Shown: piece after piece, positions 11,201 to 33,828 of the stretch
Position numbering within the stretch: position 1 is the first letter of the stretch
Layout of the letters: each line of letters begins with the position of its first letter
Source of the DNA: Poseidonia sp.
Lineage (GTDB): Archaea > Thermoplasmatota > Poseidoniia > Poseidoniales > Poseidoniaceae
Length of the DNA: 64,000 nt
NCBI GenBank assembly: GCA_030827475.1
Contig: JAUREJ010000003.1
Location: forward strand, 6,648 to 70,647
Direction: 5' to 3'
Made by a program: the position numbers and the translations under genes
Notes under the pieces: model-generated
Database searches by the model: none
Seen by the model: the letters and a program-made list of their open reading frames with translations, nothing else
What the model was told of the DNA's origin: nothing

Positions 11201-14200
11201 CCTACATCAACGGTAGCCTCCGCTCCTATCCAGGGGTCACGGTCGAGGAATACGATGCATGGTTGGACGCAACGCTTGAGGAAGACAAGGTCAAGACCAC
11301 CGAACCTGCTTCAGCACTGACCGTGAACTTCGTATCAGGAACATTGGCATTCACAGCCGTGACCAACGTCTCGGGCGCCTTCTCCGTTCGCGTCCCCTCC
11401 GGATTGACCTACCACATGACGACCGAGAGCGTCATGGCGAACCGTGGGTACGGTGAATTGGTCGAAGTTGAATCCGGTGTTGATCTTGACCTCGGCCCTC
11501 TCTTCCTTGAACCTTCAACCGGTGTTTCGGGTGTCCTTTACCTCTACGACAACACCACTCGCTGGGATGCGACTCAACCGCTTTGGGAAGCGGTCGATGT
11601 GGTTGCCACCAACGAAGATGGATTGGAATGGCGAACAACTGTATCGGACACGGCGACGTTCTTCTTTGACCTTTTGGACGGGGATTGGGACTTGTCGGTT
11701 GACGACGAACGACTCAACGTCTCGGTGATCCAAGACGTCTCTGTCAACCATTCGCTCACGGAGACCCTTTCCACCATGGATTTGATCGCCAACCCAGAGG
11801 CCATTGAACTCACGTTCAACATCTACCTCGACGCCGGTGGAGATGGAATGCTTGAGAACGGAACGCTGGTCTCTCCAGATTTCCAACTGAAGCCCATTGA
11901 TGAAGACAAAGAAAGCCTGTACTTCACCGCCGATGATTACACCTCAAACGGGAATATCACCCTGGCCTTGACGCCAGGTGGGTATGACCTCGTGTTCAAT
12001 CGAACCACGGCCGAGTCCGAGAATGCATCCGACTTTGATTTGATTGGTGTCCAATTCTTCGACGCCATCGTCGTAGGACTTGATGCCATTGACGAACCCT
12101 TTGATGTTGCTCTGAAGAACACCTATCTCGTGAATGGAACGCTAACGAACAGCACCGGTGACGGAATTGCGAACGATTTCCTGCTCTACAACGAAGCTGA
12201 AGACCAATGGTTCAACATCGGTTCGGACGAGAACGGCAGCTTTGCCGCTTACGTTCCCGCAGGCGAATGGCTCGCCATCGTTGCGCCCTTCTCAAACGGG
12301 AACGAGACCGAAACCCTTCGCTCGCCAATCTCTGTGCAACACGATTCTGCACGGCTTGACCTTGCGCTGACCACTGAAGTCAGTGTTGAGGTGACCCTTC
12401 AGTTGATGGCATGGTTGACCAACGAGACCCTCGCCGACATGACGGTGACGGCTGTGAGTCAAGACGGCTACGGCAACATCACCTTTGACCGAACCGATGC
12501 AAACGGGAACGCAACCGAGATGATGATGCCGGGGACGTGGAGTCTCTACCTCAATCGGACCGTTGGCACACAATCTTGGTTCTTGGACACGAGTGACGCA
12601 CCGTTTACCACGGCTGACGCGGTCAACAACAGCCTTGTTCTTGGCCCCGTCTACGCAGAACTCGAAGTCGAAATCGGCGGGAAAGTGTACTGGGATCTTG
12701 ACAACAACAGCCTTCCAAGTTTGGGCGAAGGGATTTCTGAGTTCAACATCACGTTACAAGGCGTGAACCATTCGGATGTCAGCATTGACACGGTGACCGA
12801 CAGCGAAGGTGTTTGGCGTGCATTTGTTCCCATCAGAGACGTGTACAACGTGACGGTCGCCAAGGAAGGCTTCGAAACGGTCTACTACGCGACCGAAAAC
12901 GAATCTGGATATGCAGTGTACGACAGTCCGGACTCGCGTGACATCGAAGTCACGGCGGGTTCTGTTGATGTGTTCGGTTACGTGACCGACCAGTTGGATG
13001 CCCAACGCCTCATTGACGCTACCATCGTCCTTTACCCTGTTGCGGGCGTTGAACGTGACCCGGTCTCCTTGGACGGCACGATGAACGGTACAACCCTTGA
13101 ATGGTCGGCGAGCATTCAGCCCGGTGACTGGGTCGTTGTTGTTCGTGAAGCTGATCCCGGGCAGAACGGTGGCGGTGTAGCCATCGGCCTCTTGGAGGCC
13201 ACCGTATCCAACGGAGGTAACCTCTCCTTGGTCATGGCCCTTGGCGGTTATGTCGACCTCTCCACGGCTTGGGCAGATATTGAACAAAACGAACACCACG
13301 CCGGTGCAGACGGTGCTGGAGGAAGCATGATTCAAGATGATGTTGAACTCGAAGTGACCTTTGAGGAGATGAGCTGGATTCTATCCTTGCCATCTTCAGG
13401 CAAGTTCGAGAAACTCCTCTTCCCGGAAGGTACAATCGCCTTTGACAGTGAATTTACCACGGTCCAGCACGAGCGACAATTGGAAATGGAATACTTCGGT
13501 GGGCAGACCACTTCGGTGGCTGCGGATTCGTCCATCTCTGCAACCCTCAACTACAACCGACGGGTCAACTCCAACTTGGACGTGAACTTTGTTGAATCCT
13601 CAGTCGGAAGCTCGGCGACGGTGCTTGATGTTGAGGACGTTGAGCTCGAAGCGATTGTCTCGTCCGGCAACGCATCAATTTTCAACACCATCACGTTTGA
13701 CTACACGGTTGACTACAACGGTACAGAAATCGTCGATGTTTTCACCGTGAGCGGTGAATTGGGTCTCGCACAAGACTCCGAGGATTGGACCGTTCAAATC
13801 TGGAACAGCACCAGCTTAGCCTACGAAGACAGCGTTGAAATCGTGCTTGGAATCGGTGATAACGAAACTGAAGCCGCACTGACGACCACGGTTCGTGTCC
13901 AAGTGACCCTTCCCGATGTTGGCGATGCTTGGAGCCTTGAAAACGGGCACCGAGTCACCGTCCGCATGAAGACTGATCTGGGCGAATCAACCCAAGTCTC
14001 TGCGAAAATCTTCGTACCTCAGACCTACGCCTTCAGCATCTCCGATGCGACCGAAGAACTCGGCATGTCTGCGCTTGTTGAGCGCCGTTTCTCCTTTGAC
14101 ATCACCAACGACGGAAACGGACAAGACACGTTCACCATTGAACTCTTGGAAAGCGGTATTCTCGAAGGTTGGTCCATTACCCCAATGACCTCCACGCTGA

Positions 14201-14808
14201 CGTTGAGCAAGGGCGAGACCCGAACCCAACAGTTCACGGTGTTTGCTCCCGAATCTTTTTCCGAGGGTTCATTTGATTTGACCGTCTACGTCAACAGTCT
14301 TGACGAAACGGTCGCACAGCAGACGGTTGTTGTCAACGTGCAGGCTGCCGTGATCAAGTTGGTCGTCGACGAAGGGGCCATCGTGGTCAATTCCGACTCC
14401 AATGCGAACCAAGCCGGCAGCGTACGTGTGCCCGTGAGCAACAACGGCTTCTTGGACGCACCATCGGTTCTCGTCTATATTGAGCCTACATCGCCGGCGA
14501 GCCAACCAGAGCGCTCGGTGACCATCAACGTCCCCGCCGGGGAAACCGTTGAGGCGGTGTTCGATGACATGACCTTCACGCAGGGCAACCAGCGATTCAA
14601 CATCCGTGTTGAGGTTGCAGGTGCTGAAACAAGCAGCGTTGAATCCATCTCGTTGCCTGCCGGTGGGACCTTCTCCTTGGAGTACTACACCCAGAGTGAT
14701 ACCGAAGGCGAGTCCATTTGGACGACGCTTCTAATCATCGTTTTGCTTGTTCTCGTGGTCGTTGGCGGCGTGAAAGTCAGTCGTGGTGGCCGTAGAGGCA
14801 AGTTCTGA
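5233..14808 (+). CDS. aglB: giant (3191 aa) AglB/STT3-type oligosaccharyltransferase: multi-TM core with EL1 acidic motif (DPWYMKRVVDY, about nt 6445) and the WWDYG catalytic signature (nt 8083..8097, aa 951-955). Preceded by about 350 aa of extra TM helices and followed by about 2200 aa of acidic beta-rich extracellular sequence that ends in a C-terminal TM helix (LLIIVLLVLVVVGG + RGGRRGKF)
   Basis: Uninterrupted ORF. WWDYG is diagnostic of STT3/AglB/PglB. Many hydrophobic helices lie before it, and the DxxK motif TVDKYLN follows it. Confidence 0.8.
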   Translation: MEEHTETTANQPGAIMGLLLAPLAVLLALATTRVVGIEYDLTLNNMMPMLVVAIASMLALVPRIVQDARPEFASSTLSLGVLAIAFFGAEVLHSFLGVDALAALMFAVLVVLGSNFDRRGRHEWVAMMTFSGVGFWLALAAAGDALAALPSTYTMESGQLVSTMNLERQATAYVFFAYWTMFTVVGVLAGVLARGTVNPAGAEGWFAFLGQHDGFNRANLPLVIALVVWVLAFVGSLFHFNSVDTIDQLAITTEAGYHGYIGYWTAFLTGLVALIVAGMCAERWYTRAMLVGSMWGLYQVAAWFEAGIWYNEDMDGTWGALIWLGITFFLGVGIYSIGNHEKYGGWANLGEHEPSQARLFLRAHGAGLMIALAFLVGLAIRIQWYAVPSMNAFGTGNWDMTGGSDPWYMKRVVDYILANNAHLVFDADRFYPIGGINPRPPLFSWTMAIGAMFLEPFLNTPEDAVWWSMLALPAVYGALTVFPIAIIAKDHFGKGAGVIAAWLIAFMPAHVTHSTWALADHDSFVMLFISVGFLYWLRAVKYAGSARITKVTTAHPKSFFQAYLDVLAHRQAAVANAVLAGVAFGIVSLGWKGFVVGPSILFLAYALQVALNMFRRRDSTTLSALFLTMLLTTFLMALPFYGHPEFDLILNPTGLQPFLFISGFTLAIAFVTTGFRDKPWLLVLGTLVGLAAVFFILLYILKTLELSNAWDVLFTGSGYFTKTKIFGTVAEANAPNRAQLFASFGPITFLLALIIGGGLLWKGLRYRKGTELVFGVWVFAATFMAWNAARFMFNATPVMAVLGAAGIVALWQWANWSGLVRSWKKFGIRTPADRITGARKAVWRTPQFSAIFLVMIMIFSQQATYGLDSAIPGTSNQEGEIDERIYNVVPDILRFDALGFSVLDSSNYDGRWYLGSFGSSFNDNGWNAAYEWLANQDTDMKYSEKPAFVSWWDYGFQAMSTGEHPSVSDNFQSGIPATGNMLLARNQDDLTAMFIWQLAEGDRTYATTDNSNHKFTPTFQNTVDKYLNDAQMEDFVTMQTTFDETMIDFIELRSFSVVKANRNIVMAEGHPSTAGVFDADTTIYRIYKDGVPLPCTEEFSSSCLGDAWSSMSEANITFTNNIRTPDETVNGRTHSIFGDYWYTADLIDEYLSVSTNIHRTNARLAMMTQLLTEAFDAHPTATIHDLYNDLIGLEGLYRVQDYEGKPGETISRDHEIRYFAIDDRLYPRAGRYTADSNYNRGQPMGIFGAPTILSGQDIGTYMDEVYETVRGDFQDEMTREEVDEAMQKDFLNQQAGADIDPLQIQDVRVDHNPAFFDTMVARTYVGYGASTLGINTAASNPQPAQHFGQSGSPGSVLANSLPLPGAMMNHFVISNWYSEDETVSIQSTNTLVKILKYYPGAELTGQVTMTDNGEGLPGVRILIERDAFSGEGSSDNDEDTYWIPIGFVDADDDGKYSFLAPAGRLRVTAFAGDYDPSEARDNLRDGSYAERLSDILTDTNDDRQINEITAILGQVANMSWLGEAQLNVTADQANRVVPMDRTLDVSIESSGVSGTVTWSGDEAFNGDPIAETTFILRNIWSMTDNYTVVTTSGSFTSEESRILQGTGEATLTEDGSFDSEGIALAKNFIGDFTRDIGNERSFFANGTWNGNGLLEASWVGVENITACEADNTSNAVMPANETICVVDATTTPPTYRLEGTVDAQGTFTSEGTSTLTRTYGDADAGQGETIEGAGLFEGTGTFNGTGLFIGVGTFSGPMVEPGSFYKTGLLPGTYNMIAQLANGKEVLLPDPVEIGVVPSFDLRMNMPGAIFTDILSNMVGDGLANTTIELIDRDLGEDAAVYIVTDELGNFSYGPVAKGDYYYRVDVDGDGYYDLNESVMVLDDTTNISLAMGVPDTVDVTMTLISPVDPLTQEPLFDVSNRTITFENTEGILQPMNVTSDENGELSIELLYGVWDVRDDANPDFVLFDQVDLSPGTENIVKDVTYAQAAYINGSLRSYPGVTVEEYDAWLDATLEEDKVKTTEPASALTVNFVSGTLAFTAVTNVSGAFSVRVPSGLTYHMTTESVMANRGYGELVEVESGVDLDLGPLFLEPSTGVSGVLYLYDNTTRWDATQPLWEAVDVVATNEDGLEWRTTVSDTATFFFDLLDGDWDLSVDDERLNVSVIQDVSVNHSLTETLSTMDLIANPEAIELTFNIYLDAGGDGMLENGTLVSPDFQLKPIDEDKESLYFTADDYTSNGNITLALTPGGYDLVFNRTTAESENASDFDLIGVQFFDAIVVGLDAIDEPFDVALKNTYLVNGTLTNSTGDGIANDFLLYNEAEDQWFNIGSDENGSFAAYVPAGEWLAIVAPFSNGNETETLRSPISVQHDSARLDLALTTEVSVEVTLQLMAWLTNETLADMTVTAVSQDGYGNITFDRTDANGNATEMMMPGTWSLYLNRTVGTQSWFLDTSDAPFTTADAVNNSLVLGPVYAELEVEIGGKVYWDLDNNSLPSLGEGISEFNITLQGVNHSDVSIDTVTDSEGVWRAFVPIRDVYNVTVAKEGFETVYYATENESGYAVYDSPDSRDIEVTAGSVDVFGYVTDQLDAQRLIDATIVLYPVAGVERDPVSLDGTMNGTTLEWSASIQPGDWVVVVREADPGQNGGGVAIGLLEATVSNGGNLSLVMALGGYVDLSTAWADIEQNEHHAGADGAGGSMIQDDVELEVTFEEMSWILSLPSSGKFEKLLFPEGTIAFDSEFTTVQHERQLEMEYFGGQTTSVAADSSISATLNYNRRVNSNLDVNFVESSVGSSATVLDVEDVELEAIVSSGNASIFNTITFDYTVDYNGTEIVDVFTVSGELGLAQDSEDWTVQIWNSTSLAYEDSVEIVLGIGDNETEAALTTTVRVQVTLPDVGDAWSLENGHRVTVRMKTDLGESTQVSAKIFVPQTYAFSISDATEELGMSALVERRFSFDITNDGNGQDTFTIELLESGILEGWSITPMTSTLTLSKGETRTQQFTVFAPESFSEGSFDLTVYVNSLDETVAQQTVVVNVQAAVIKLVVDEGAIVVNSDSNANQAGSVRVPVSNNGFLDAPSVLVYIEPTSPASQPERSVTINVPAGETVEAVFDDMTFTQGNQRFNIRVEVAGAETSSVESISLPAGGTFSLEYYTQSDTEGESIWTTLLIIVLLVLVVVGGVKVSRGGRRGKF

Positions 14809-19200: not shown

Positions 19201-20697
19201 GGCGACCTCCCAAGCGGCGACTACACCGTTACCATCTGGGCTGCTGACAGCGACTTATGTATTGACAACAACACCGGTTGCCAAGTTGAAGTTCGGACCA
19301 TCACCATCAACAACGAAAACCTCCGGCCGAATCTTCAATTATCTTGGATTGGTGCAGCAGACCAGTCCTCAGGCGGTATTGATGGCGACACCGTTCGTGC
19401 ATCAACTGAAACGAAGATTGTCGGCGTGGCCCGTGACGTTGGTGGCTTTGTGACTCGTGTTGAAATCGAAATCACCGACCTCGCCAACGGACTGGTGCTT
19501 AACGATGGGCCACTTCCGGTCACTTCGTTCAACGCTGACGGTTCATGGGTTGCCAACTGGGACACCTCTGACCTCGTTCACGACCGTGTGTATTCCGTGA
19601 CGGTTCGGGCTTACGACGGCGATGATTACTCGGACGACATCGTTTGGAGAATGACCATCAACAACCCACTTGATGCAGAAAATATTGATCCCGTGTTCAA
19701 CGAAACCGGCTGGGTGGGTACATGGACCATTTTCTGCGATGAAAATTCCAACTCCTTCGACCGCTGCGGTGGCGGTGTGACGTTTGACCTCGGTAATTTC
19801 TTTTCGGACCCCGATGGAACAGGGACCCCAGCCAACGACCTGGAATTCTACATCTACGATGACCCAGCAACCATTGAAGACGACATGTACTTCGATTTCA
19901 TCCGAATTTCCGCTGATGGATTGCTCACTTACGATCCGGTTTCCATGATGAGTGTCACCAGCAACATCCCCGATTGGTCCTTGAACGCCGTGGTGATCTA
20001 TGCTCAAGACGATCAAGAATCAAAGGCATATTCACTCAAAGTGAACTTCCTCGTCCGCGGGGTCTCCTTCAGCGTTGAGCGCGCCGACTCCGGCGCCATC
20101 ACCGTGAACGACCCCGCTACGTTCCGAGGGACAGGACTTCCCGGAAGCACGGTGAACCTTCGCTTCGCAGATGGAAACTCCCTCCTAAACAGCACGAAGG
20201 TTCTCTCCGACGGAACGTGGAGCATGGACCTCTCAGCCAGCCAACTCGGTATTGAAGGTAAGTCGGCGGTTGTCTTTGAAATGGACGATCAATACTTCAG
20301 GTTCTCCGGTCAATCCCAAACCGAAAAAGGCGAATTCAGTATTTCGGTTGCGGGGGCCGATGATGGCGGTTCGGGTGTCCTCGGTATCGTTCTTATCGTT
20401 CTCGCAGTTTTGGTGCTTCTCGGTGCAGCTGCGTTCTTCTTCATCGAATTTGAGGAAGTGGTTGACGAAGCCGAGTTGACCGGCGATGACGCCCAAGAAG
20501 CGGAGGACCCTTATGCTTGGGCCAAAGCCAAGCAAACGCCAAGTCTGCCTGAACAGGCCCATGCGCCTATGGAAACTGCTCAAGCCGTTGCAGAAATCGC
20601 TGCACCCGCCGCTGCCTCCCAACATCCAGGGTGGCTGTGGGACGAAGCCACGAACCAGTGGGTCCCTGACCCGAACTACCAGCAACCGCAACAGTGA
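16276..20697 (+). CDS. giant secreted cell-surface protein with right-handed parallel beta-helix (NosD/pectin-lyase-like) repeats, Asp-rich Ca-binding-like segment (DGIDNDGDTYVDDFD), C-terminal TM helix and short Pro/Trp-containing cytoplasmic tail
   Basis: ORF track 16222..20697; signal peptide MSRRKQAKSLSLVLLYMVSIMVGMVSLPTVMA starts at 16276; repeated motifs NNVITTAEGAGL, RNTISGASEGSGVGI, HNNIIG; C-terminal GIVLIVLAVLVLLGAAAFFFIEF. Confidence 0.8.
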   Translation: MSRRKQAKSLSLVLLYMVSIMVGMVSLPTVMANNETTQGTVTGVETWSGTMNLQGDVEVAEGAKLIINAGTTVNIPFGKFIDVKGAICVGDSACGASAGSASSKARFMWSLPTDYTKIGRCYVNGSSTFTNGDAACGSGLVIRDTIDQSITSINFAHFENAYGYPIYVQTLQAVQYGALVFDGSSTTARGLSFTDINTSNVIAIDFASPTISESTFELGVDGRGYDAAAVRAYGAGAGILATFEVKDSSFTGNDADCGQQGGGRAVLFIEDSYIDMDNLDISQNSYGVLMKSSSGSLTNSVIDVKCNAIDTNSLKTTGTIDHTLTITNNVITTAEGAGLTAYDGAKVYAERNTISGASEGSGVGIRSSVVELHNNIIGPVGGWNGLWIYGTSDVVAENNTIQDTGKEPVLIGEYHYQDSGWQVPAPSAARLYLANNVISNNSGTCNSQMYGGDFPCPAVHVFRSSASILDNTISGNNGDIIRAKGSLVNVQRNTADSQGGFAGNISLHDDNYGNKYGSVAYFSGNTWTGVSQVYNITESRVTVQSEQIPSPGFNESYPVNIRWLGAECPYVQDECLKLPDTVALPPAQMPLALELVENATVFSFADLQNFDSSMIHVQNQNTAWGSQVREGELVQYQVKAKNSNVAGATVVIKDATGLPLYELTTDALGYTQEVSLPSDFLLDRNWNHIVGDKNAAIPGTNDGTGQPIVVDEDSCADGIDNDGDTYVDDFDVSSGAGDTSNCESGNREMPFYTVEAFKFGSGTKELSYVLSGPVNDVINLDNLRPGVTVNQQDGTSFATTVRLTGQAWDGAKWPYANDNTAVQSQFGKIQRVEIQPPGSTDWYTASDTSGSGGEITMANHPFKDWVFDWDMSAHPEGEGDVTFRIRSFDGLDYSPVEVRQYKLNLVAPTILVDVPTTGSTFNNGKVLFQGTASDPYQGTYGSDVKQIWFHISGEGGFEQQFFQAGSTSWSYEWDVGDLPSGDYTVTIWAADSDLCIDNNTGCQVEVRTITINNENLRPNLQLSWIGAADQSSGGIDGDTVRASTETKIVGVARDVGGFVTRVEIEITDLANGLVLNDGPLPVTSFNADGSWVANWDTSDLVHDRVYSVTVRAYDGDDYSDDIVWRMTINNPLDAENIDPVFNETGWVGTWTIFCDENSNSFDRCGGGVTFDLGNFFSDPDGTGTPANDLEFYIYDDPATIEDDMYFDFIRISADGLLTYDPVSMMSVTSNIPDWSLNAVVIYAQDDQESKAYSLKVNFLVRGVSFSVERADSGAITVNDPATFRGTGLPGSTVNLRFADGNSLLNSTKVLSDGTWSMDLSASQLGIEGKSAVVFEMDDQYFRFSGQSQTEKGEFSISVAGADDGGSGVLGIVLIVLAVLVLLGAAAFFFIEFEEVVDEAELTGDDAQEAEDPYAWAKAKQTPSLPEQAHAPMETAQAVAEIAAPAAASQHPGWLWDEATNQWVPDPNYQQPQQ

Positions 20698-20722
20698 CGG
20701 GCTAACGAGCGAGGGAATTTTG

Positions 20723-23248
20723 ATGGCTGTTCTGGGGAAGCCGGGGGTGCAAGAGAGGATCCTTTTGCACTTGTTGGACTACTCTGATTTCAAAGACAGC
20801 ATTGAAGTGCCGTTCGCACTCTCTCAAATGGGTATTGCGAACGCCGTGGCCATCGCTCGTTCAAACGTGCCCCGAGCAATTGCTGGCTTGAAGGACCAGG
20901 GGATATTGGTTGAACGCCAAGCTCATGTCAAAGGCGTTTCTCGAAAACGGAAGGCCTACTTTTTGACCGATAGCGGCGTTTCCCTCGCAGCGGAGACATG
21001 GCAGCGTCTTTCGGACGTTCCCGTACGATGCATCATCGATGCTCAGTCACCCAGAGATACAACGCTCGGTGGCATTAAGTCTGTGCTTCCTTTTCCGATG
21101 CGACCCGTGGATGTCATCCGGTACATGGACGATAACCACACCTTGGACCTACGAAGCTTAAGCGCCGAATTGGTCGAGCGGGATTTGTCAAAACACGTGG
21201 AAAAACAACTGGTCACCTCCCTCGCCGACCTTCCGCGTCTGCGTCATTTCTACGGGAGGGAAACCGAACTTGACAACATGGTGAACCTTCTCGAAGCACG
21301 GGCAACGACATTGCTCGTACCGGGGATCGCTGGAATCGGGAAAACGACGGTGGCCTCCAAGTTGATCGAGCGGTTCCTTCATCGACGAAATTTGCTCTAT
21401 CACCGGTGTCAAGATTGGGAAGGATCCCGGTCTTTTTTCGAATCCGTGGCGGACTGGCTCTCGAGCATGGGAAACTCAGATTTTTCGACATATCTTGCTG
21501 CGACACCTGTTCCTCAGCCCGGTGACGCTGCGCGACTTCTCGTCGAGGCCCTTCAAGGCTCACCCGCCCTCATCGTCATCGATGATTTTCACAAGGTAGC
21601 CGACCTCGTTCTTCACCAAACCTTCCAGGCCATGTCGTTGAATTTGCTCGGAAGTGAGGAAAAGATTGGTTTGGTGATGTTTTCAAGGTCGTTCAAACCC
21701 GTTGTTCCGACAAAGGACGCTGAAGGGCGGATTGCAAGCTTGGTGTTGCCGCTTGACGGTCTTGATTCCGCTTCGGGTCGTAAACTTCTCAGCAGTTTTA
21801 AGCAACTCGAAGAAGAACAATGGCTTCACATTCACGGCTTGTCCCGAGGGCACCCACTGGTCTTGGAACTCATCAACCGTGGAGCTTCGGCCGGAGCGTT
21901 CCACGAGACGTTGGAAAATTATGTCACGGTCGAGATTTTCTCAAAATTGAGTGCCGAACAGAAGCGTGTCCTCTCCGCCCTGGCCATTTTCCGAGAGCCG
22001 GTGTTTCTTGATGCCCTGGCTCAACAACAGTTGGATACCGATGTTCTCGACAGTCTTGTCGAGTCGGGTTTGGCTCGCCAAGCCGACGCGGATACATACG
22101 ACGTTCACGATTTGATTCGTGAATTCCTGCTACGAAGCATGACGCCCGCCCTCAAATCGGAATTTCACAGTAAATGTGCTGATTGGTACGGTAAGCAGCC
22201 CGAGAGTCACGAAATTCTCGTGGAGTTGATCTATCATCTCATTCAATCCGGGCAACACGACGAAGCTTCAAAATCCATCGTCACCGAAGGTCGTCATCTC
22301 GTCACGCAAGGCCACATGGAATTGCTTGGCCTGATTGAACAAGTCGATACGGCTGACATCGACTCCACAACGCAACTCTCTCTGGCTCAACTGCAGGGTG
22401 AAATTTTAGCCTTGTTGGGACGTCACGATGAAGCAGAAGTGTTGCTCCAAACCGCTTTGGAGCGAGCAGAGAAGAACGCCGATGTTCTCGTTCAAGCCGA
22501 GTTGCTCTCATCTCTGGCGGATGTGAGCCGGAAACAAGGGAACAGCGACCTCTCACTCCAGCGCCACAAAAAAGCGCTCAAGCACTACATCGCTCTCGGG
22601 GATGCTCGTTGGGCTGCTCGAACCTACAACAACATCGGCTACCTCCTGCGCCGGAAAAACGAACAAGCAAAGGCGCTTGAAGCCTATGGTGAGGTGGAAT
22701 CCATTCTTTCATCCTCCAACGATGACGGTTTGATCAGCAGCCAGATCACGCTGGCCAGAGCCCTCATCGACCTGGGTGAAGTCGACCGTGCCCGTCACCA
22801 CGCCATGGCGTCTCACGAACGCACCTCTGAACTCGAAGACACGTCGTTGCACGCACGGGCTCAAGCTGTTCTTGGGAGGTACTATTCGCGGGTGGAGCAA
22901 TCTGAACTTGCCCTGTTCCACTACAACGAGGCACTTGTTGCAATGAACGAAGCAGGTGATGTCCAATCGCTGGTTGAGATCACGATGTTGCTGGGCGAGG
23001 TGCTCCACGATGCTGGGCGAGGCGATGAAGCCATTGAGCATTATCGGGAGGCCCTCGTGTTGGCCGAAGCTAACGACCTACGCATGCAAATAGGGGAATT
23101 GTTGACCCGTCTCGGTGGACTTTCTCCCGAACGTCACGAACGAATGGAATATTTGCAACGTGCCCTCAAAGTGTTCCGTGAATTGGGCGCTCAATCCCGC
23201 ATGCGTGAAGTCCAATCGCTGGTCCACCGAGCCGTAATGGGACGCTAA
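20723..23248 (+). CDS. STAND-type signal-transduction NTPase: N-terminal winged HTH, P-loop NB-ARC/AAA-like domain (Walker A GIAGIGKTT, Walker B LIVIDDFH), C-terminal TPR array
   Basis: Motifs read directly in the translation. The ORF track start at 20486 would overlap the upstream giant gene by 212 nt, so the Met at 20723 preceding the wHTH was chosen. Confidence 0.75.
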   Translation: MAVLGKPGVQERILLHLLDYSDFKDSIEVPFALSQMGIANAVAIARSNVPRAIAGLKDQGILVERQAHVKGVSRKRKAYFLTDSGVSLAAETWQRLSDVPVRCIIDAQSPRDTTLGGIKSVLPFPMRPVDVIRYMDDNHTLDLRSLSAELVERDLSKHVEKQLVTSLADLPRLRHFYGRETELDNMVNLLEARATTLLVPGIAGIGKTTVASKLIERFLHRRNLLYHRCQDWEGSRSFFESVADWLSSMGNSDFSTYLAATPVPQPGDAARLLVEALQGSPALIVIDDFHKVADLVLHQTFQAMSLNLLGSEEKIGLVMFSRSFKPVVPTKDAEGRIASLVLPLDGLDSASGRKLLSSFKQLEEEQWLHIHGLSRGHPLVLELINRGASAGAFHETLENYVTVEIFSKLSAEQKRVLSALAIFREPVFLDALAQQQLDTDVLDSLVESGLARQADADTYDVHDLIREFLLRSMTPALKSEFHSKCADWYGKQPESHEILVELIYHLIQSGQHDEASKSIVTEGRHLVTQGHMELLGLIEQVDTADIDSTTQLSLAQLQGEILALLGRHDEAEVLLQTALERAEKNADVLVQAELLSSLADVSRKQGNSDLSLQRHKKALKHYIALGDARWAARTYNNIGYLLRRKNEQAKALEAYGEVESILSSSNDDGLISSQITLARALIDLGEVDRARHHAMASHERTSELEDTSLHARAQAVLGRYYSRVEQSELALFHYNEALVAMNEAGDVQSLVEITMLLGEVLHDAGRGDEAIEHYREALVLAEANDLRMQIGELLTRLGGLSPERHERMEYLQRALKVFRELGAQSRMREVQSLVHRAVMGR

Positions 23249-27056: not shown

Positions 27057-27890
27057 TCACCCCAAATCCTGCGATGCGACTTCGTTGTGCAGGGGTGATT
27101 TGGTTTCGGTTTCGGATGGCTGCCCGATGTAATGGGAAAAATCAGGGCCGTCCTGTTCGGAGATTTTCAGGTCGCCCGTGAAGACTTCTGCGATGTGATA
27201 GAGCACGGTCGATTCGGCGATGTGAGGCCGATTGTTTTTCTGGCTTAGGTGCGTCAGGACAATGGTTCGTGTGGCTTCCGTACAAACCTCGGCCAGGAAC
27301 TGGCCGGTTTGGTCGTTTGACAAGTGGCCTCCGCGTCCGGAGATGCGATCCTTCAAGCTGTACGGGTACGGGCCTCCAAGCAATTTCTTCTCGTCGTAGT
27401 TGGCCTCAATGGAAATGTGTTCGCAACCCCGCACGTGCGTGACCAGTTCGTCGGTCCACGAGCCGAGGTCGGTGATGATGGCGGCTCGTTCTCCGTTGTG
27501 GCTTGCGACAAAGGCCACATTGTCCGAACCGGCGTGGGGGACGGGAACGGGCAGCACGGAGAGGTCGTCACCGACACGTATCAAATCAAGCGCAGCGAAG
27601 TGGGTGGTCAACGAGGGGAGCAGGTCGAGTTCAAGCGCCGTACGCTCGTTGGCCAGGATCTGGGTGTTCCATCGCGTTTGCATGATGCGAGCACCACCTC
27701 CGTGGTCGCCGTGATGATGGGAGATGAAGACGCAATCGATGTCCTCCGGGCTGAGGTCAAGGCGGGCGAGCCGCTTCTCCAGTTGTGCGCCGCTGAAACC
27801 CTGATCGATCAGCACCCGAACCTTTGGCGTCTCCAGCAGCGTCGAGTTGCCCCGGCTTCCGGTTCCAAGGTGGGTGATGGTCATCGTCAT
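27057..27890 (-). CDS. MBL-fold metallo-hydrolase (YycJ-like: HLGTGSRGNS, HHHGDHGG, GHLSN motifs)
   Basis: HxHxDH zinc-binding motif and GHLSN. Start at MTMTITHLG (27890) rather than the track's 28079; this leaves an 8-nt gap before the pilin operon. Confidence 0.8.
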   Translation of the reverse strand: MTMTITHLGTGSRGNSTLLETPKVRVLIDQGFSGAQLEKRLARLDLSPEDIDCVFISHHHGDHGGGARIMQTRWNTQILANERTALELDLLPSLTTHFAALDLIRVGDDLSVLPVPVPHAGSDNVAFVASHNGERAAIITDLGSWTDELVTHVRGCEHISIEANYDEKKLLGGPYPYSLKDRISGRGGHLSNDQTGQFLAEVCTEATRTIVLTHLSQKNNRPHIAESTVLYHIAEVFTGDLKISEQDGPDFSHYIGQPSETETKSPLHNEVASQDLG

Positions 27891-28077
27891 GCGAACAACT
27901 CGGAGCGGTCGCGGAGGATTCTTGAACACACCGACAGAACCTGACGGTATCGGATGTTTTGGCGGACTTTCGCACGACGTCAAGGTGTGCGTGTATGAAC
28001 AATGTTCCATCACCCTCATAAGCAATCTGAGCAAGGTATTCTTTGAGCGAAGCGTATGCTTTGCAGCAGGCGAGAAC

Positions 28078-31000
28078 ATGAGGCGCAGTCAAACCACGCT
28101 CCTAACCACCCTCGCAGTCGTTGCGAGTTTACTCTTCATGTCGCAATTTCCTTCAATTTCGAACGTTGCCAACGTTCACCCCGATGACACGACGCAAACG
28201 CCACCTCCCAACACGGATTCGGATGGTGATTTGATTCCTGATGTTCACGAAACGCTCTTTGAAGGTTGGATGAATTGGACTGCACCTGATGGTCGTCCAG
28301 TTGCGATGAAAGGCTTGGACAAGGACGATGCTGTTGATGCTGACACCGACCGGGACCTTGACGGTCTCAACGCCACCGAGGAATTCTGTTGGCCCTATCC
28401 CGCCAACTGCACCGCTCCTGGCTTCCCTCGTGGACTCACCGGCGAACTTGATGAAAACAACGACCGAGTCTACCTTGACCCTCGCATGGCTGACACGGAC
28501 GGCGACGGGATGCCCGATGGGTTTGAGGCGTACATGTGTCAGCGAATGGGCGGATTTGACATCGTGAATTTGAGGTTCATCTGCCCTTCATTCGACCCGT
28601 TGAACGGTAGTGATGTGACCCTGGATTCGGACAACGACGGCTTTGATGTGAACAGGGACGGTGTCATGAGCGAAGCCGAACGTTACACTGCACCCGAAGA
28701 GTATGCACACGGCATGCCGTCAAACTACACCACTGAGCTCGACGGCTTGTGGTGCTTTGCAACCCTTCCCAACGGGGCCCTTCTGAAAAATTGGCCTTAC
28801 ATTTCCTCGGGGGCGAACGCCACGTTCCACAACCTCTTGCCCGCCTGCACCAATCGCGATGTTCCGCATGTTGGTGAAGATTTGTGGCTCGGAACCGACC
28901 CGCTGCTCGATGACTCCGACCGCTACCTCTGGGACGGATTTTCAATCCGGTCGCTTTACCCTTCGTTCGGTGACGGCATTCCCGACGGTTGGGAAGTTCA
29001 CTTCGGCCTCGACCCGCTGAACCGTTCCAACGCCCTTTCAGACCCCGATCGAGACGGCTGGGACGCCAATCGAGACGGTGGTGTTTCCGAGGACCTTTCC
29101 CGCACCTTCACGGCGCTCAAACTCGGTGAAGCCCTCTCGACGCTTGAAGAATACACGGTGCACTACGACAACGGAAACACGGTCTATCCGGGATTGAAAA
29201 CGACTTACGTTGGCGATGAAGAGCCGTTTTCCACCTTCCCGCTGATCTACGATGCAGAAGCCGATGCGCTCTCCGTCTTGCACCATGATGTCCGAGCCCT
29301 CGACGAGCACGATGATACGGTTTATGTCATGACGCGATACGGTATCAGCACGGTCAACGAAGTCGACTCCACCCAATCCCATCAATGGCTGCCGCAGGGC
29401 GTTGAGTTGACCGACGGTTTCCTCGCCCGCTCGAACAACCTGCCCTTCGCTTTGGTGATGGGCACCACCGCCGGTTTTGCCGTCGCCCCTTTGCTGGCAG
29501 ATGGAAGCCTCGGTGCCTTAGCGTCGTGGGATTGGTCACTGACGGGGCATCTGAACGCCATCGCCCCGCTTTCAGGGGATGGCGCCTCGTTGTTCGTCCT
29601 CGGTTTGGCCGATGGTGGTGAGGGCGCGTTGATTGAACTTGGCAACGCTGCCGTGATTTCTGAGACCCATGAACTCGGCATTGGCTTGGTATCAACACTT
29701 GCCGAAGCAAACGCTTCCGTCACCGATATTGAACACGGTTTAGCAGGAGGTGCAACCCTTTCGCTCTTCGTCGGAACGGACCGCGGTCTCCTGGTTGTTG
29801 AAACCGCCTCTGCTCGTGACGAGGCGGTCGGCGAGTGGCGCTTCTTCTACACGCAAGACGATGTGGATCTTCCCCCGAACGTTGACGAAGTTCGAAACCT
29901 CCCTCCCGGTTCGACCGGCAATCCTGCCGAAGTCCGGACCATGATTCTCGACGGCCCAACGTCAAGCAATGCGCAAGTGTTGTGGTTTGGCACCCCTGCC
30001 GGATTGCACAAACTCAACCTCAATGACGATTCCATCGACCACAGCGGCTTGCTCCTCCACCCCGGTGTGGACGGAGCGATGGCGCGGGAAACCAACAGCA
30101 TCCGAAGCATCCATCCTACGGGTGATGAAATCTTGGTGGGTTCGGATTGGGGGCTTTGGGCAGTGGCCGGCGATTACGCCTCGGTCTACGGCCTCCAAGA
30201 CCAAACCCGACTTCCGGGTGAAATCGTCGCCATCACGACATCCGTTGGGGAAGGGAACGTGACCGTCTACGGTGCGGCCTCACCCGGCCAATACGCCAAC
30301 CTCCTTCTCATGGATCCTGGAGCCAACGATTCGGATGCCGACGGCATGCCCGATGGTTGGGAGGTCGTCCACGGATTGGACCCCACCGACCCTTGGGATG
30401 CACTCTACGACAACGACGGAGACGGTCTTGATCTTGACCAATCCGGAGATATGAACCTCGAGCGACTTTGGACGAATCTCGACGAATTCCGATACACGAA
30501 ACTGACTCCCGAAGGCTACAATTCAACCGACCCTCGTGTTGGTGATACCGACGGGGATGGTTTGGGGGACGGAGCCGAATATTTCGGTTTCTTCTTTGAA
30601 CAATCCACCCTCTGGTGCCACTACACCGTTCAGTTGGTCCATGTCTGCGATGATGCGGCAGGTCAAGCCGCCAACGCAACTTACCTCGCTGTAGCGAACG
30701 TCGACAGCCCCACCGACCCTACCAGCGAAGATTCCGACGGTGACGGCATGCCCGACGGCTGGGAAATCCAACACCGACGCTGGGTTGGGACCACCTTCTC
30801 GGGCGGAAACAACTGGAGCCTTGATCCCCTACGAGCCGAAGATGCAAACTGGGATGCTGATGGTGACGGTCTGCCGAACCTCTGCGAATACCAGTGGTCT
30901 GTCGTGCGTCTTATGGGCCTTAACGGCGACCTTTTGGCGGATTACGGTGAATCACCCGAAGCCGTTGCCTCGTGGGCGGTGGCCGACCCGAACCTTATCG

Positions 31001-33828
31001 ATTCAGACGGAGATACCCTTCCCGACGGTTGGGAATCCAAAGGCCTCTGTTCGTGGGACCCTTCTCGTGTAGGCGTGAATCCCCTCAACGGCTCGGATGC
31101 CTTTGAAAATCCTGATGGGGACGGTTACGACATCAATCACGACGGCGTCTTGAGTCAGGATGAAGCCTTTGTGAACTATCTTGAATATCACGTTCGAACC
31201 GACCTTTTCAGTGGCAACATGACGCTCTCCGGGGAGCCTCTGCCCGCAGGCTTTAGCACTCAACTCTTCGACCGCATCGGAGAACTGGGTCAACCCGACG
31301 CCACCTTTGCAGAACGGGCATCGGGTGCCGTGACGTCCGGTCAATCCACCTTCAGCGTCGGAGCAGCCGACCCGTTGAGCTCGGACACCGACCGGGACGG
31401 CATGCCCGACGGCTGGGAAATATGGCACGCACGATGGAACCTGCTCGACGATGCATGGACGCTGAACCCCTTGGACTCCACGGACCGTTGGGACGACGCT
31501 GATAGCGACGGCATGACGAACTGGGAGGAGTACAACGCCATCTCGCCTCTCCTGAGTCAGACGGATGCAAACCGCTCATCCCCGCAATGGTTTGTGACCA
31601 CAATCGGTACAGCCTTTGCGCTTCAACAATGGCCCGGTATTCCAACGGAGGCCTCGTTCGGAGATTTCCTCACGCAAGACCAGATCAACCTCACAGGTTG
31701 GACATCCGACCCCAACAATGTTGACACCGACGGCGATGGTATGCTCGATGGCGTGGAATTGCTCTTCACCTCGTGGAACGTCTCAGCTGCGACATGGACG
31801 CTCAATCCGCTCGTTGCAGGAGACGGTAATTTTGACGGCGACGAAGACGGTCTTATCGACCGGCAAGAATTTGCCCTTGCCACCGAACAACCCGACAACG
31901 GTGTTGAACATCCAAGCGATGCGCCGTTGATGCATGTGGACGGGGATTTCCAACAACCCACGGAAAAAGCCCAGCGCGTGTTCAACATCCTCATCTCAAA
32001 GGAGACGAGAGGCAAGCGTTTGCTGAACGACTTCAACGCCTGGCAGCAGGGTGAACCCCCCAACGCCTTCATTGAGGTTGTTTTGGGAATGACCGACCCC
32101 ACCATCCCCGACACCGACGGTGACGGGATGTACGATGGATTTGAGTATTGGTTCACGTCGTGGGATTTGGACCAAAACCGTTGGTCCATCAACCCGCTCA
32201 TCGACGGTGACGTGAACTTGGATTCGGATCAAGACAGTTTTGATTGCAACGGGGACGGTGAAATCGATGGCAACGAATCCTTCTCGAATCTCAGGGAATG
32301 GGAATCCCGAACATGGGGGAAATTCCTCAACCGGAACACGGTTCCCGTTTCCATGGGCATCATCGATTTCGGCGAAGATGCGATGCTCGCCTATCAGGAA
32401 GAAATGGGATACTCTCTGATTCAAGCCCAATCAGCGCTTTACCAAGACTTTGTTGAGAAAGGTCAAGACTCCGCCGACAGAATGGCGAAGATCAACTCAT
32501 TGGAGAGCGAGAATTTCAACCGAAGTCTTCGGGGCGTTGCTGACCCAACACATCCTGATTCAGACAGTGACGGCATCCCGGATGGTTGGGAATACTGCTA
32601 CGCTATTTTCGGGATGGATGATGCCACAACTCAAAATCACTGGGCAGCCAATCCTCTCAACCCGTGGGACGTGAATTACGACGGTGACCATGACGGATGG
32701 TACGACCGAACCGCGTTTGACATTCCTGCTGTCCAAGGCACGTGGGACGAACGAACCTTTACGCCCTCCGGTGTCATGATTCAAAACGGAATTGGCGACT
32801 TGCCGTTCACGAACGCCATGGAATACGACAACCAAACACGCCCAGATCTCAACGACAGCGACGAGGACAGCCGGACCTTCATCACGGTTGTCGAGAACGG
32901 GGCGGTCGTCTCTCATGAACGGGACTACAATTACTCCGATGGTCGTGAGGTGTTCAAGTACGGCTCAAATCCAAGCGACAACGATACCGACGGTGATATG
33001 CTTCCCGATTGGTACGAATACAAGCTCGGATGGAACGAAAGCAACGACAATTTCAGTTCTTACCTCCAAATTCAGGTCGTTTGGATCGATGTCGCAACCG
33101 GTGGGCCTTGTAGCACATCGACCACATCGTGTTTGCCCCTCTCGCAAGACGGTTCAGGCGGTACCCTGAGTCGCCCTGAGATCGAGATGGCTTGGTTCAC
33201 ATTGAACCCTGCGGATCCAAACGATGCCAACGCCGACCCCGACCAAGATGGAAATTGGGATTGCTCAGGTGCTGGTTGTACGTACGAACCTTACACCAAT
33301 TTCCAGGAGTTCTACGCCATAACGCTCAATGTCTACGCTTCACCGAATGCTGTGAGGTTGAGCGGGTTGACCTACGATGGGTCACCGGTCACCGAAGGCT
33401 GGCAGTTCCGTGCTGCACTCCTCGGCCTCGGCCAGTCGAACGAGTTGGTATTGAACTACTTGAAACTGGACAAATACGCCGGTCCAGACCGTCAATACGG
33501 CTACATTGTGGACGACAAAGATACTGATTTCTTATCGGTTGATCCGAGCGACGACGTGGTGATGATGGCCGGAAACCGGACCGACCAGTGGGAGATTTAC
33601 TACGCAGGATCGCCCAACACTGCTCCTGTACGGAGCGTGGGGGAGCACGAATTCGGTTGGTATTTGCTCGATTTCGACGACGACCATTTGGCCGAAGGTT
33701 CAAACCCGATGAATTGGGATACGGACGGAGATTGGATGAACGATTGGTTCGAGGTTCGGGACGATGAAGAGGACGGTGTCCGAGGAGATTCCTCTCCCAT
33801 CCGATACGACTCCAGACAAACCAGTTAA
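28078..33828 (+). CDS. giant (1917 aa) secreted acidic protein built from many thrombospondin type-3-like Ca-binding repeats (D-x-D-x-DG-x-x-D-G-W-E) plus beta-propeller-like middle region; no C-terminal TM anchor
   Basis: Signal peptide MRRSQTTLLTTLAVVASLLFMSQF; at least 10 copies of DTDGDGMPDGWE-like motifs (e.g. nt 28495, 30336, 30733, 31387, 31726, 32110, 32563, 32986). Confidence 0.85.
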   Translation: MRRSQTTLLTTLAVVASLLFMSQFPSISNVANVHPDDTTQTPPPNTDSDGDLIPDVHETLFEGWMNWTAPDGRPVAMKGLDKDDAVDADTDRDLDGLNATEEFCWPYPANCTAPGFPRGLTGELDENNDRVYLDPRMADTDGDGMPDGFEAYMCQRMGGFDIVNLRFICPSFDPLNGSDVTLDSDNDGFDVNRDGVMSEAERYTAPEEYAHGMPSNYTTELDGLWCFATLPNGALLKNWPYISSGANATFHNLLPACTNRDVPHVGEDLWLGTDPLLDDSDRYLWDGFSIRSLYPSFGDGIPDGWEVHFGLDPLNRSNALSDPDRDGWDANRDGGVSEDLSRTFTALKLGEALSTLEEYTVHYDNGNTVYPGLKTTYVGDEEPFSTFPLIYDAEADALSVLHHDVRALDEHDDTVYVMTRYGISTVNEVDSTQSHQWLPQGVELTDGFLARSNNLPFALVMGTTAGFAVAPLLADGSLGALASWDWSLTGHLNAIAPLSGDGASLFVLGLADGGEGALIELGNAAVISETHELGIGLVSTLAEANASVTDIEHGLAGGATLSLFVGTDRGLLVVETASARDEAVGEWRFFYTQDDVDLPPNVDEVRNLPPGSTGNPAEVRTMILDGPTSSNAQVLWFGTPAGLHKLNLNDDSIDHSGLLLHPGVDGAMARETNSIRSIHPTGDEILVGSDWGLWAVAGDYASVYGLQDQTRLPGEIVAITTSVGEGNVTVYGAASPGQYANLLLMDPGANDSDADGMPDGWEVVHGLDPTDPWDALYDNDGDGLDLDQSGDMNLERLWTNLDEFRYTKLTPEGYNSTDPRVGDTDGDGLGDGAEYFGFFFEQSTLWCHYTVQLVHVCDDAAGQAANATYLAVANVDSPTDPTSEDSDGDGMPDGWEIQHRRWVGTTFSGGNNWSLDPLRAEDANWDADGDGLPNLCEYQWSVVRLMGLNGDLLADYGESPEAVASWAVADPNLIDSDGDTLPDGWESKGLCSWDPSRVGVNPLNGSDAFENPDGDGYDINHDGVLSQDEAFVNYLEYHVRTDLFSGNMTLSGEPLPAGFSTQLFDRIGELGQPDATFAERASGAVTSGQSTFSVGAADPLSSDTDRDGMPDGWEIWHARWNLLDDAWTLNPLDSTDRWDDADSDGMTNWEEYNAISPLLSQTDANRSSPQWFVTTIGTAFALQQWPGIPTEASFGDFLTQDQINLTGWTSDPNNVDTDGDGMLDGVELLFTSWNVSAATWTLNPLVAGDGNFDGDEDGLIDRQEFALATEQPDNGVEHPSDAPLMHVDGDFQQPTEKAQRVFNILISKETRGKRLLNDFNAWQQGEPPNAFIEVVLGMTDPTIPDTDGDGMYDGFEYWFTSWDLDQNRWSINPLIDGDVNLDSDQDSFDCNGDGEIDGNESFSNLREWESRTWGKFLNRNTVPVSMGIIDFGEDAMLAYQEEMGYSLIQAQSALYQDFVEKGQDSADRMAKINSLESENFNRSLRGVADPTHPDSDSDGIPDGWEYCYAIFGMDDATTQNHWAANPLNPWDVNYDGDHDGWYDRTAFDIPAVQGTWDERTFTPSGVMIQNGIGDLPFTNAMEYDNQTRPDLNDSDEDSRTFITVVENGAVVSHERDYNYSDGREVFKYGSNPSDNDTDGDMLPDWYEYKLGWNESNDNFSSYLQIQVVWIDVATGGPCSTSTTSCLPLSQDGSGGTLSRPEIEMAWFTLNPADPNDANADPDQDGNWDCSGAGCTYEPYTNFQEFYAITLNVYASPNAVRLSGLTYDGSPVTEGWQFRAALLGLGQSNELVLNYLKLDKYAGPDRQYGYIVDDKDTDFLSVDPSDDVVMMAGNRTDQWEIYYAGSPNTAPVRSVGEHEFGWYLLDFDDDHLAEGSNPMNWDTDGDWMNDWFEVRDDEEDGVRGDSSPIRYDSRQTS
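30742..30767 (+). repeat. 26-nt exact intragenic DNA repeat gacggcatgcccgacggctgggaaat encoding the DGMPDGWE Ca-binding motif (second copy at 31396..31421); part of a family of degenerate TSP3-repeat coding units
   Basis: Identical strings read at both positions. Confidence 0.8.

Follow-up and report, generated by a model that had tools for sequence, protein, structure and literature searches.

The 64-kb stretch of archaeal DNA analysed here (the window) derives from Poseidoniales (Marine Group II) and carries, at 28078..33828 on the plus strand, a single coding sequence of 1,917 codons including the stop. We consider its 1,916-residue product, with a probability of roughly 0.55, to be a Poseidoniales-wide, Sec-exported and extremely acidic surface protein that is stiffened by calcium and probably both N-glycosylated and disulfide-bonded. 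Two regions of EF-hand-like DxDxDG loops flank a beta-propeller of about seven blades, and the loops appear from their sequence to be a divergent form of the bacterial thrombospondin type 3 (TSP3) repeat. A preliminary description of this gene, made from the DNA alone, had recognized the loops but had also proposed that exact DNA repeats could drive variation in length between strains. The main outcome of our analysis is that this claim of recombination-driven variation is wrong.

The protein contains 24 D-x-[DN]-x-[DN]-G sites. Twelve of these fit the longer pattern DxDxD..[hydrophobic]xD..E, and a motif hidden Markov model (HMM) adds a degenerate thirteenth at residue 298, giving a tally of 13 long and 11 short loops that are mostly paired. 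The more than ten aspartate boxes reported earlier are therefore real, as 13 long motifs of the DxDxDG[MIL]PDGWE type among the 24 sites, and the exact string DGMPDGWE occurs in three copies only (residues 751, 885 and 1103). At the DNA level, a degenerate pattern of the motif has six matches in the window, all of them within this gene, and none in shuffled sequences. The 12-residue pattern of the EF-hand type (D1-D3-D5-G6-D9-E12) is fitted by 17 loops, and the columns of the loop pattern are invariant or nearly so among 41 sequences. In AlphaFold2 (AF2) models, a predicted helix begins at or beside loop position 9 in all nine loops compared. Because the helices start near this position, each loop with its exiting helix has the geometry of EF-hand-like DxDxDG sites, and the features that define such loops (acidic or amide ligands at positions 1, 3, 5, 9 and 12, glycine at position 6 and the exiting helix) were all found. 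The type 3 repeats of solved thrombospondin structures are not known to have helices of this kind.

Most loops are paired at a distance of 27-44 residues, in units of about 110-150 amino acids, and the linkers are unique to each unit and conserved position by position. The N-terminal loop region has long motifs at residues 47, 139 and about 295-306 and short DxDxDG sites at residues 91, 183, 190, 322 and 329. Most C-terminal units consist of a DxDxDG[MIL]PDGWE loop, a second loop of the form DxDxDGxx[ND]xxE[YF] at the usual distance, and then the conserved linker. AF2 modelled residues ~850-1540 of this array as mainly coil with short helices, at a predicted local distance difference test score (pLDDT) of 80-93, and a Foldseek search of the array model against the Protein Data Bank (PDB) found no fold match (best E 5.6). 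An array that is modelled with confidence and has no PDB match is a structure worth solving.

The reading of the loops as TSP3-like calcium-binding repeats stood in part. They are aspartate-box loops of the calcium-binding type; the TSP_3 profile that had been proposed as a check (PF02412) gave no match at E<=10, whether the query was the whole protein, one of four orthologues or one of 10 motif segments, in searches where the HMMER filters may hide very weak matches. The profile of the bacterial TSP3 repeat, PF18884, found six stretches in the window protein at 24.2 bits, with a gathering cut-off of 25 bits. Four orthologues scored 22.3, 28.0, 19.9 and 25.7 bits, which places two of five family members above the cut-off, and eight of the 10 motif segments had subthreshold matches of 12.8-24.6 bits. 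Some database orthologues also carry a precomputed PF18884 match. The nearest non-orthologous relatives, found by phmmer at E 1e-52 to 1e-71 with 13-27 matched stretches, score 62-393 bits on PF18884. Since these relatives are strong PF18884 proteins, homology of the window protein to the bacterial TSP3 repeat family is supported at the level of sequence. The motif profile matched the OmpA-family structure 5wtl at its TSP3 repeats (E 3.9e-5) and component II of C2 toxin at its calcium site (DTDRDGIPDEWEI), and faint EF-hand matches were present in Pfam. Thrombospondin or COMP chains were recovered by none of the motif profile, the family profile and Foldseek, and a phmmer search of the whole protein against PDB sequences returned only a chance match to neocarzinostatin (E 0.03). 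Designed ankyrin repeats (GADPNAKDSDG), also matched by the motif profile, were set aside as a compositional coincidence, and a dockerin-like reading of the loop pairs was rejected, there being no Dockerin_1 match in Pfam.

Between the two loop regions, AF2 modelled residues 345-760 as an all-beta propeller with a pLDDT of 87 and a predicted template modelling score of 0.86. Foldseek related this propeller to WD40/RACK1 structures and to the periplasmic sensors 4a2l and 3ott of Bacteroides hybrid two-component systems (HTCS) at E ~1e-7 to 1e-9; the two HTCS sensors themselves gave ~1e-7 to 1e-8, and WD40 matches were as good or better. When the whole-family profile was compared with the PDB, the sole sequence match was another HTCS sensor, 3v9f (E 6.4e-5). 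No match to Pfam Reg_prop was reported for the protein. The propeller is also its least conserved part, with 30-50% identity to the query in the orthologue alignment.

Several features argue for export. The predicted signal segment is the only strongly hydrophobic window besides a propeller strand and is conserved in orthologues, and its removal would leave a product of ~207 kDa. The protein has a pI of ~4.05 and an aspartate content of 12.4%. N-x-S/T sequons number 27, compared with 14.6 +/- 3.6 in shuffled sequences, and 11 of them are kept in at least 80% of orthologues; the AglB/STT3 oligosaccharyltransferase encoded in the window was counted in favor of an N-glycosylated surface protein. 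There are 16 cysteines, most of them invariant. No hydrophobic window was found near the C-terminus. The earlier suggestion of a large secreted protein with no membrane anchor agrees with this combination of a Sec-like N-terminus, sequon excess, conserved cysteines and a hydrophilic end. The last residues form instead a tail shared, throughout the order, by almost all species representatives with complete genes, and the final 36 residues have a mean identity of 79% to the query in the orthologue alignment. The tail has no transmembrane helix or known sorting signal, and could be a docking or sorting peptide. An integrin-type reading of the RGD within it was dropped, as the Thalassarchaeaceae have RGN and the triplet is therefore not conserved. 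Searches for S-layer families in Pfam and NCBIfam gave no match, and neither a C-terminal transmembrane helix nor a PGF-CTERM was found.

The family was surveyed through the 120 best database matches, which have 42-100% identity, nearly all at 99-100% coverage. All named homologues belong to Poseidoniaceae, Thalassarchaeaceae, Poseidoniales or Marine Group II, in agreement with the archaeal origin first given for the protein. The 116 full-length orthologues measure 1,870-1,946 residues, and two longer calls (1,968 and 2,039 residues) are probably upstream start-codon choices. In the window itself, the longest mechanical open reading frame (ORF) runs from a TTG at 27847 to 33828 and has 1,993 residues; because the N-termini of orthologues read MRR[SK]Q, matching the ATG at 28078, we place the start there, and this frame and the 1,968-residue database call simply reflect starts chosen upstream. 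Many antisense and off-frame ORFs of 80-190 residues overlap the gene, including on the minus strand of the same interval, and are probably spurious frames of the type common in G+C-rich sequence.

A scan of species-representative genomes yielded 55 loci, one per genome. By our own ORF calls, 43 of 45 species loci with complete genes encode 1,884-1,946 residues, and both length outliers are technical (a missed start at L044 and an N-masked locus at L060). An alignment of 32 sequences is almost gapless, with the Asp, Gly and Glu residues of the loops, many Trp and most Cys invariant or nearly so. Among 1.8 billion cluster representatives searched, only about three full-length clusters at 50% identity share the architecture of the window protein, and for this reason the family appears, by sequence, to be essentially confined to the order Poseidoniales. 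The labels of the 55 loci are Marine Group II-type or generic archaeal, with one exception: an orthologue with Marine Group II-type neighbors lies on a contig (L024, CAXRAI010000019.1) filed under a Salinimicrobium sp. metagenome-assembled genome, and this contig is probably mis-binned. The 90% identity cluster of one orthologue (P0107) also holds unrelated glycosyltransferases of ~375-388 residues and a member from a Marine Group II/III fosmid, close to the orthologues in length (1,865 residues), that UniRef names 'AAA ATPase' (entries P0107 cluster and P0170); these odd members and names look like artefacts of clustering and annotation.

We also examined the idea that exact repeats within the gene cause its length to vary. 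The identical 26-nt copies reported at 30742 and 31396 (GACGGCATGCCCGACGGCTGGGAAAT) are present, and the match stops at 26 nt in both directions. A strain-variable adhesin or matrix protein, in which such repeats recombine to change the repeat number, could draw on this direct repeat with its in-frame spacing of 654 bp, and on the result of resampling synonymous codons with the protein held fixed, where the identity averaged 15.9 nt, with a maximum of 25 nt over 500 runs, and thus never attained 26 nt. However, we regard this explanation as highly improbable. The same pair of sites shares only 2-17 nt of exact identity in 12 related loci (8 distinct genes), and the closest strains share 17 nt, with one synonymous Gly codon differing (GGT vs. 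GGA). The full identity is absent from every relative checked and is private to this lineage. Beyond the 26 nt, the best-matching 180-nt units are only ~61% identical. Since the repeat exceeds what resampling gives and is absent in relatives, it would reflect a somewhat improbable coincidence in the choice of codons or, at most, a very short conversion tract.

Length itself speaks more directly. No length variant was found among the 116 orthologues, the 43 of 45 species genes or the complete members of the 90% identity clusters, the last of which have 1,916 residues or slightly more, consistent with upstream start calls. The comparison of repeat number across related assemblies that had been suggested likewise gave no variation: the gene measures 5,751 nt in all seven. 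The two closest lineages supplied six of these, and the seventh encodes a protein of 81% identity. The closest lineage (L063-L065) is 88% identical to the window gene in nucleotide sequence. Between the two families of the order, orthologous units share 60-62% identity, and in a close species 90%, but units within the window protein have a mean identity of 40% and a maximum of 48%. Because orthologous units resemble each other more than paralogous ones, the duplications predate the order and there has been no homogenization; concerted evolution was not seen in any of these unit comparisons. The near-invariant length across the order and among close strains, the nearly gapless alignment and this lack of concerted evolution together contradict the proposal that exact repeats drive strain variation in length. 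That the repeats stem from faulty assembly, a concern raised in the preliminary description, or from gene calling has next to no probability, as a collinear gene was recovered in >100 independent assemblies (ENA, JGI, NCBI and Logan), some with contigs of 0.6-3 Mb.

The picture that we favor is of a calcium-stiffened surface protein. In seawater, with ~10 mM Ca2+, the ~24 loops would stay loaded with metal, and calcium may act as a structural staple that folds a strongly negative chain, otherwise rich in coil, into a defined and rigid body whose size is fixed. This body would display the propeller as the likely ligand-binding module, perhaps for glycans, and the protein would be retained on the cell surface. 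The repeated DNA would be a by-product of a strictly conserved peptide motif together with codon bias, and would not drive changes in copy number. A fixed length and order-wide presence suggest that the protein serves constitutively at the surface or in the envelope, in a role that depends on its geometry, and do not fit a strain-variable adhesin. A number of observations weigh against this proposal. We found no anchor by which the protein could be kept on the cell, and the 1,815-residue neighbor, which would be its natural anchoring partner, is not encoded beside it in about half of the species. In the propeller no binding site could be identified, and generic WD40 folds match it as well as glycan sensors do. 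The PF18884 score of the window protein is 0.8 bits under the cut-off. Literature searches for its expression or for proteomic data turned up nothing specific to this gene. Finally, calcium did not measurably stabilize the fold of CglD, a myxobacterial DxDxDG protein (bioRxiv 10.1101/2023.10.19.562135).

The role first suggested for the protein, that of a cation-dependent adhesin or matrix protein, is plausible from its sequence, and the evidence in hand does not discriminate between building of the envelope and a function in adhesion or ligand capture. On the envelope side, the protein could be a principal component of the Marine Group II envelope, an S-layer-like lattice protein or a spacer beneath one, with the calcium loops mediating assembly and the conserved C-terminal tail docking it to the cell. 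We judge this unlikely overall, but it is the strongest of the rival accounts. Calcium-dependent assembly is common in S-layers; the gene is order-wide and close to constant in length, and each genome yielded a single locus; the product looks exported, is rich in sequons and conserves its cysteines and its tail; and the neighbors are of envelope type (a giant AglB fusion, a GT2 gene, pilin-like proteins and a giant type-I membrane protein). However, no S-layer family matches in Pfam or NCBIfam, the would-be membrane partner is absent from the locus in roughly half of species, and several other giant exported proteins of the window are equally good candidates. A bolder version is more doubtful still, in which a core envelope building block of this kind is held by the RG[DN]S.SPIRYD.R tail as a new docking signal that needs no transmembrane helix, and the loop array is a fold without a solved counterpart.

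Alternatively, the protein may serve heterotrophy, capturing substrates or attaching cells to particles, with a propeller that binds algal glycans or polymers and a loop array that acts as an extended stalk. The matches of the propeller in profile and fold to the Bacteroides hybrid sensors are consistent with this, one of the Foldseek matches being annotated as sensing heparin/heparan sulphate, as are the subtilase, beta-helix/Ig and CARDB genes nearby. The 'thrombospondin genes' of Poseidoniales have been read as adhesion genes (PMC6461757), and CglD is a calcium-dependent DxDxDG adhesin. Yet generic WD40 propellers match equally well or better, Pfam Reg_prop was not detected, the propeller is the least conserved part of the protein, and lineages considered free-living carry the gene as well. 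We consider a capture role improbable, and somewhat more so than the S-layer-like lattice or spacer.

Marine Group II have been described as the most abundant planktonic archaea of ocean surface waters and are uncultured (PMC6461757). Rinke et al. (2019) found 'thrombospondin genes' to be widespread in the order and interpreted them as genes for adhesion (PMC6461757); the supplementary files examined do not specify which gene was counted as 'thrombospondin'. Meheust et al. (2022) described family-specific protein modules with calcium-binding domains in the same order (PMC9258230). Two orthologues of the window protein are named 'thrombospondin type 3 repeat-containing protein' by NCBI. In the literature searched, we found nothing on the Marine Group II cell envelope. 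As an exported protein whose size is nearly identical in every lineage, it is well placed as a candidate core surface component, and such a component would be a possible handle for antibodies, cell sorting and virus-receptor studies. The case also illustrates that a variable adhesin cannot be deduced solely from aspartate boxes that recur in a protein and short exact repeats in its DNA.

The order of genes around the coding sequence is common to both families of the order. It begins with a beta-helix/Ig protein of ~1,490 residues, a STAND-type ATPase with tetratricopeptide repeats (TPR), three genes on the opposite strand and a metallo-beta-lactamase-fold gene; the calcium-loop protein follows, and then a type-I membrane protein of ~1,810 residues (no Pfam match), small ORFs, a pyroglutamyl-peptidase/NUDIX fusion and a GT2 gene. 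In the window, a subtilase, a beta-helix/Ig protein and a CARDB protein are also encoded near the gene, and a scan for tRNA genes and Rfam families found none. Of the 55 species loci, 50 have the beta-lactamase-fold gene and 47 the STAND ATPase, but only 27 have the pilin-like genes and only 22 the 1,815-residue gene. No functional link between the beta-lactamase-fold gene and the loop protein is evident. About 22 Thalassarchaeaceae species lack both the pilin-like and the 1,815-residue genes, and there the small gene that usually comes after the 1,815-residue gene lies directly behind the loop-protein gene; two further loci (L014 and L018) keep the pilin-like genes without the 1,815-residue gene. 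The pilin-like genes and the 1,815-residue gene may form a separate, dispensable surface module. Because this neighbor is missing in many species, the loop protein is independent of it at the locus. An obligate two-gene complex by analogy with SlaA/SlaB was accordingly downgraded, the neighbor being missing in two Poseidoniaceae as well as the ~22 Thalassarchaeaceae species. The true start of the STAND ATPase is probably later than that of its mechanical ORF, given the 212-nt overlap with the beta-helix/Ig gene, and the 3,191-residue AglB/STT3 fusion is unusually large.

Table 1. Positions in the window of the domains and motifs of the calcium-loop protein and of genes in its neighborhood
Feature	Coordinates	Strand	Details
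Sec-type signal peptide or signal anchor (predicted)	28078..28167	+	residues 1-30: MRRSQ, hydrophobic TTLLTTLAVVASLLFM, polar SQFPSISNV
N-terminal calcium-loop region	28192..29112	+	residues ~39-345; columns nearly invariant in 41 sequences
Long motif, residue 47, DSDGDLIPDVHE	28216..28251	+	pattern/motif HMM
Long motif, residue 139, DTDGDGMPDGFE	28492..28527	+	PF18884, 22.8 bits
Beta-propeller, about seven blades	29191..30279	+	residues ~372-734, between the two loop regions
C-terminal calcium-loop array	30304..33780	+	residues ~743-1901
Long motif, residue 751, DSDADGMPDGWE	30328..30363	+	PF18884, 23.2 bits
Long motif, residue 823, DTDGDGLGDGAE	30544..30579	+	motif segment
Long motif, residue 885, DSDGDGMPDGWE	30730..30765	+	PF18884, 24.6 bits; holds first 26-nt copy (30742-30767)
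Long motif, residue 975, DSDGDTLPDGWE	31000..31035	+	pattern/motif HMM
Long motif, residue 1103, DTDRDGMPDGWE	31384..31419	+	holds second 26-nt copy (31396-31421)
Long motif, residue 1216, DTDGDGMLDGVE	31723..31758	+	motif segment
Long motif, residue 1345, DTDGDGMYDGFE	32110..32145	+	motif segment
Long motif, residue 1494, DSDSDGIPDGWE	32557..32592	+	motif segment
Long motif, residue 1636, DTDGDMLPDWYE	32983..33018	+	pattern/motif HMM
Long motif, residue 1881, DTDGDWMNDWFE	33718..33753	+	pattern/motif HMM
Conserved hydrophilic C-terminal tail	33766..33825	+	residues 1897-1916; ...DG.RG[DN]S[SG]SPIRYD[SD]R.T
STT3/AglB oligosaccharyltransferase fusion	5233..14808	+	3,191-residue ORF; STT3/AglB domain at residues 392-654; rest includes a CarboxypepD_reg domain
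STAND-type ATPase, helix-turn-helix domain and TPR repeats	20486..23248	+	mechanical ORF overlaps the preceding 1,491-residue beta-helix/Ig gene by 212 nt
Three genes of 159, 744 and 361 residues	23256..27048	-	two larger with pilin-like N-termini (DUF7289 / archaeal type IV pilin N-terminus)
Metallo-beta-lactamase-fold gene	27057..27872	-	divergent to the loop-protein gene; Anti-Pycsar_Apyc1-like Pfam match in orthologues
Type-I membrane protein, 1,815 residues	33891..39338	+	Pro-rich cytoplasmic tail; flanks the loop-protein gene

Among known systems, bacterial TSP3 proteins (PF18884; 5wtl and giant metagenome proteins) share the DTDGDG[IML]PD aspartate box with the window protein. The loops of the window protein are not tandem repeats of 22 residues and stand in much longer units with position-conserved unique linkers, and the window protein differs further in its fixed rather than variable copy number and in the added propeller. 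With the eukaryotic type 3 repeats of thrombospondin and COMP (PF02412), it has in common the DxDxDG boxes, an acidic secreted glycoprotein character and little regular secondary structure. However, position 12 in the window protein is a Glu followed by a helix, and the Cys-rich spacing of the C-type and N-type repeats is absent. The calcium site of the binary-toxin B components (PF03495; anthrax PA and C2-II) uses the same 12-residue loop, with D1, D3, D5, G6, D9 and E12 and a helix near position 9, and the C2-II sequence DTDRDGIPDEWEI is almost identical to DTDRDGMPDGWEI at residue 1103. A test for the PF03495 domain itself failed, covering only positions 1-15 of 78 at 22.4 bits (cut-off 25), so that the match is one of motif and not of domain. 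Unlike EF-hand and PF03495 proteins, the window protein has no entering helix, canonical EF-hand pair or toxin domains. The Bacteroides sensors have propellers that match in profile (3v9f) or fold (4a2l and 3ott), though no better than WD40 proteins do, and GT..GL-type blade motifs can be read in the window protein, which has a single propeller without kinase or regulator modules.

A further parallel comes from the CglD and MtsD proteins of Myxococcus xanthus, COMP-like surface adhesion proteins that carry about a dozen DxDxDG repeats. CglD, which sets a functional precedent for such a protein in prokaryotes, supports calcium-dependent adhesion and traction (bioRxiv 10.1101/2023.10.19.562135). 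Against the NCBIfam models of CglD and MtsD (NF033765 and NF047639), the window protein gave weak local matches only (30.5 vs. 400 and 18.4 vs. 800 bits), and it has no VWA/MIDAS or EGF-like domains and is not a lipoprotein. The protein belongs, then, to the already known class of DxDxDG/TSP3-type surface proteins, of which it is a previously uncharacterized member. More unusual are its tightly held length, the inserted propeller, the C-terminal tail kept across orthologues, and a loop array whose confident model has no counterpart among solved structures.

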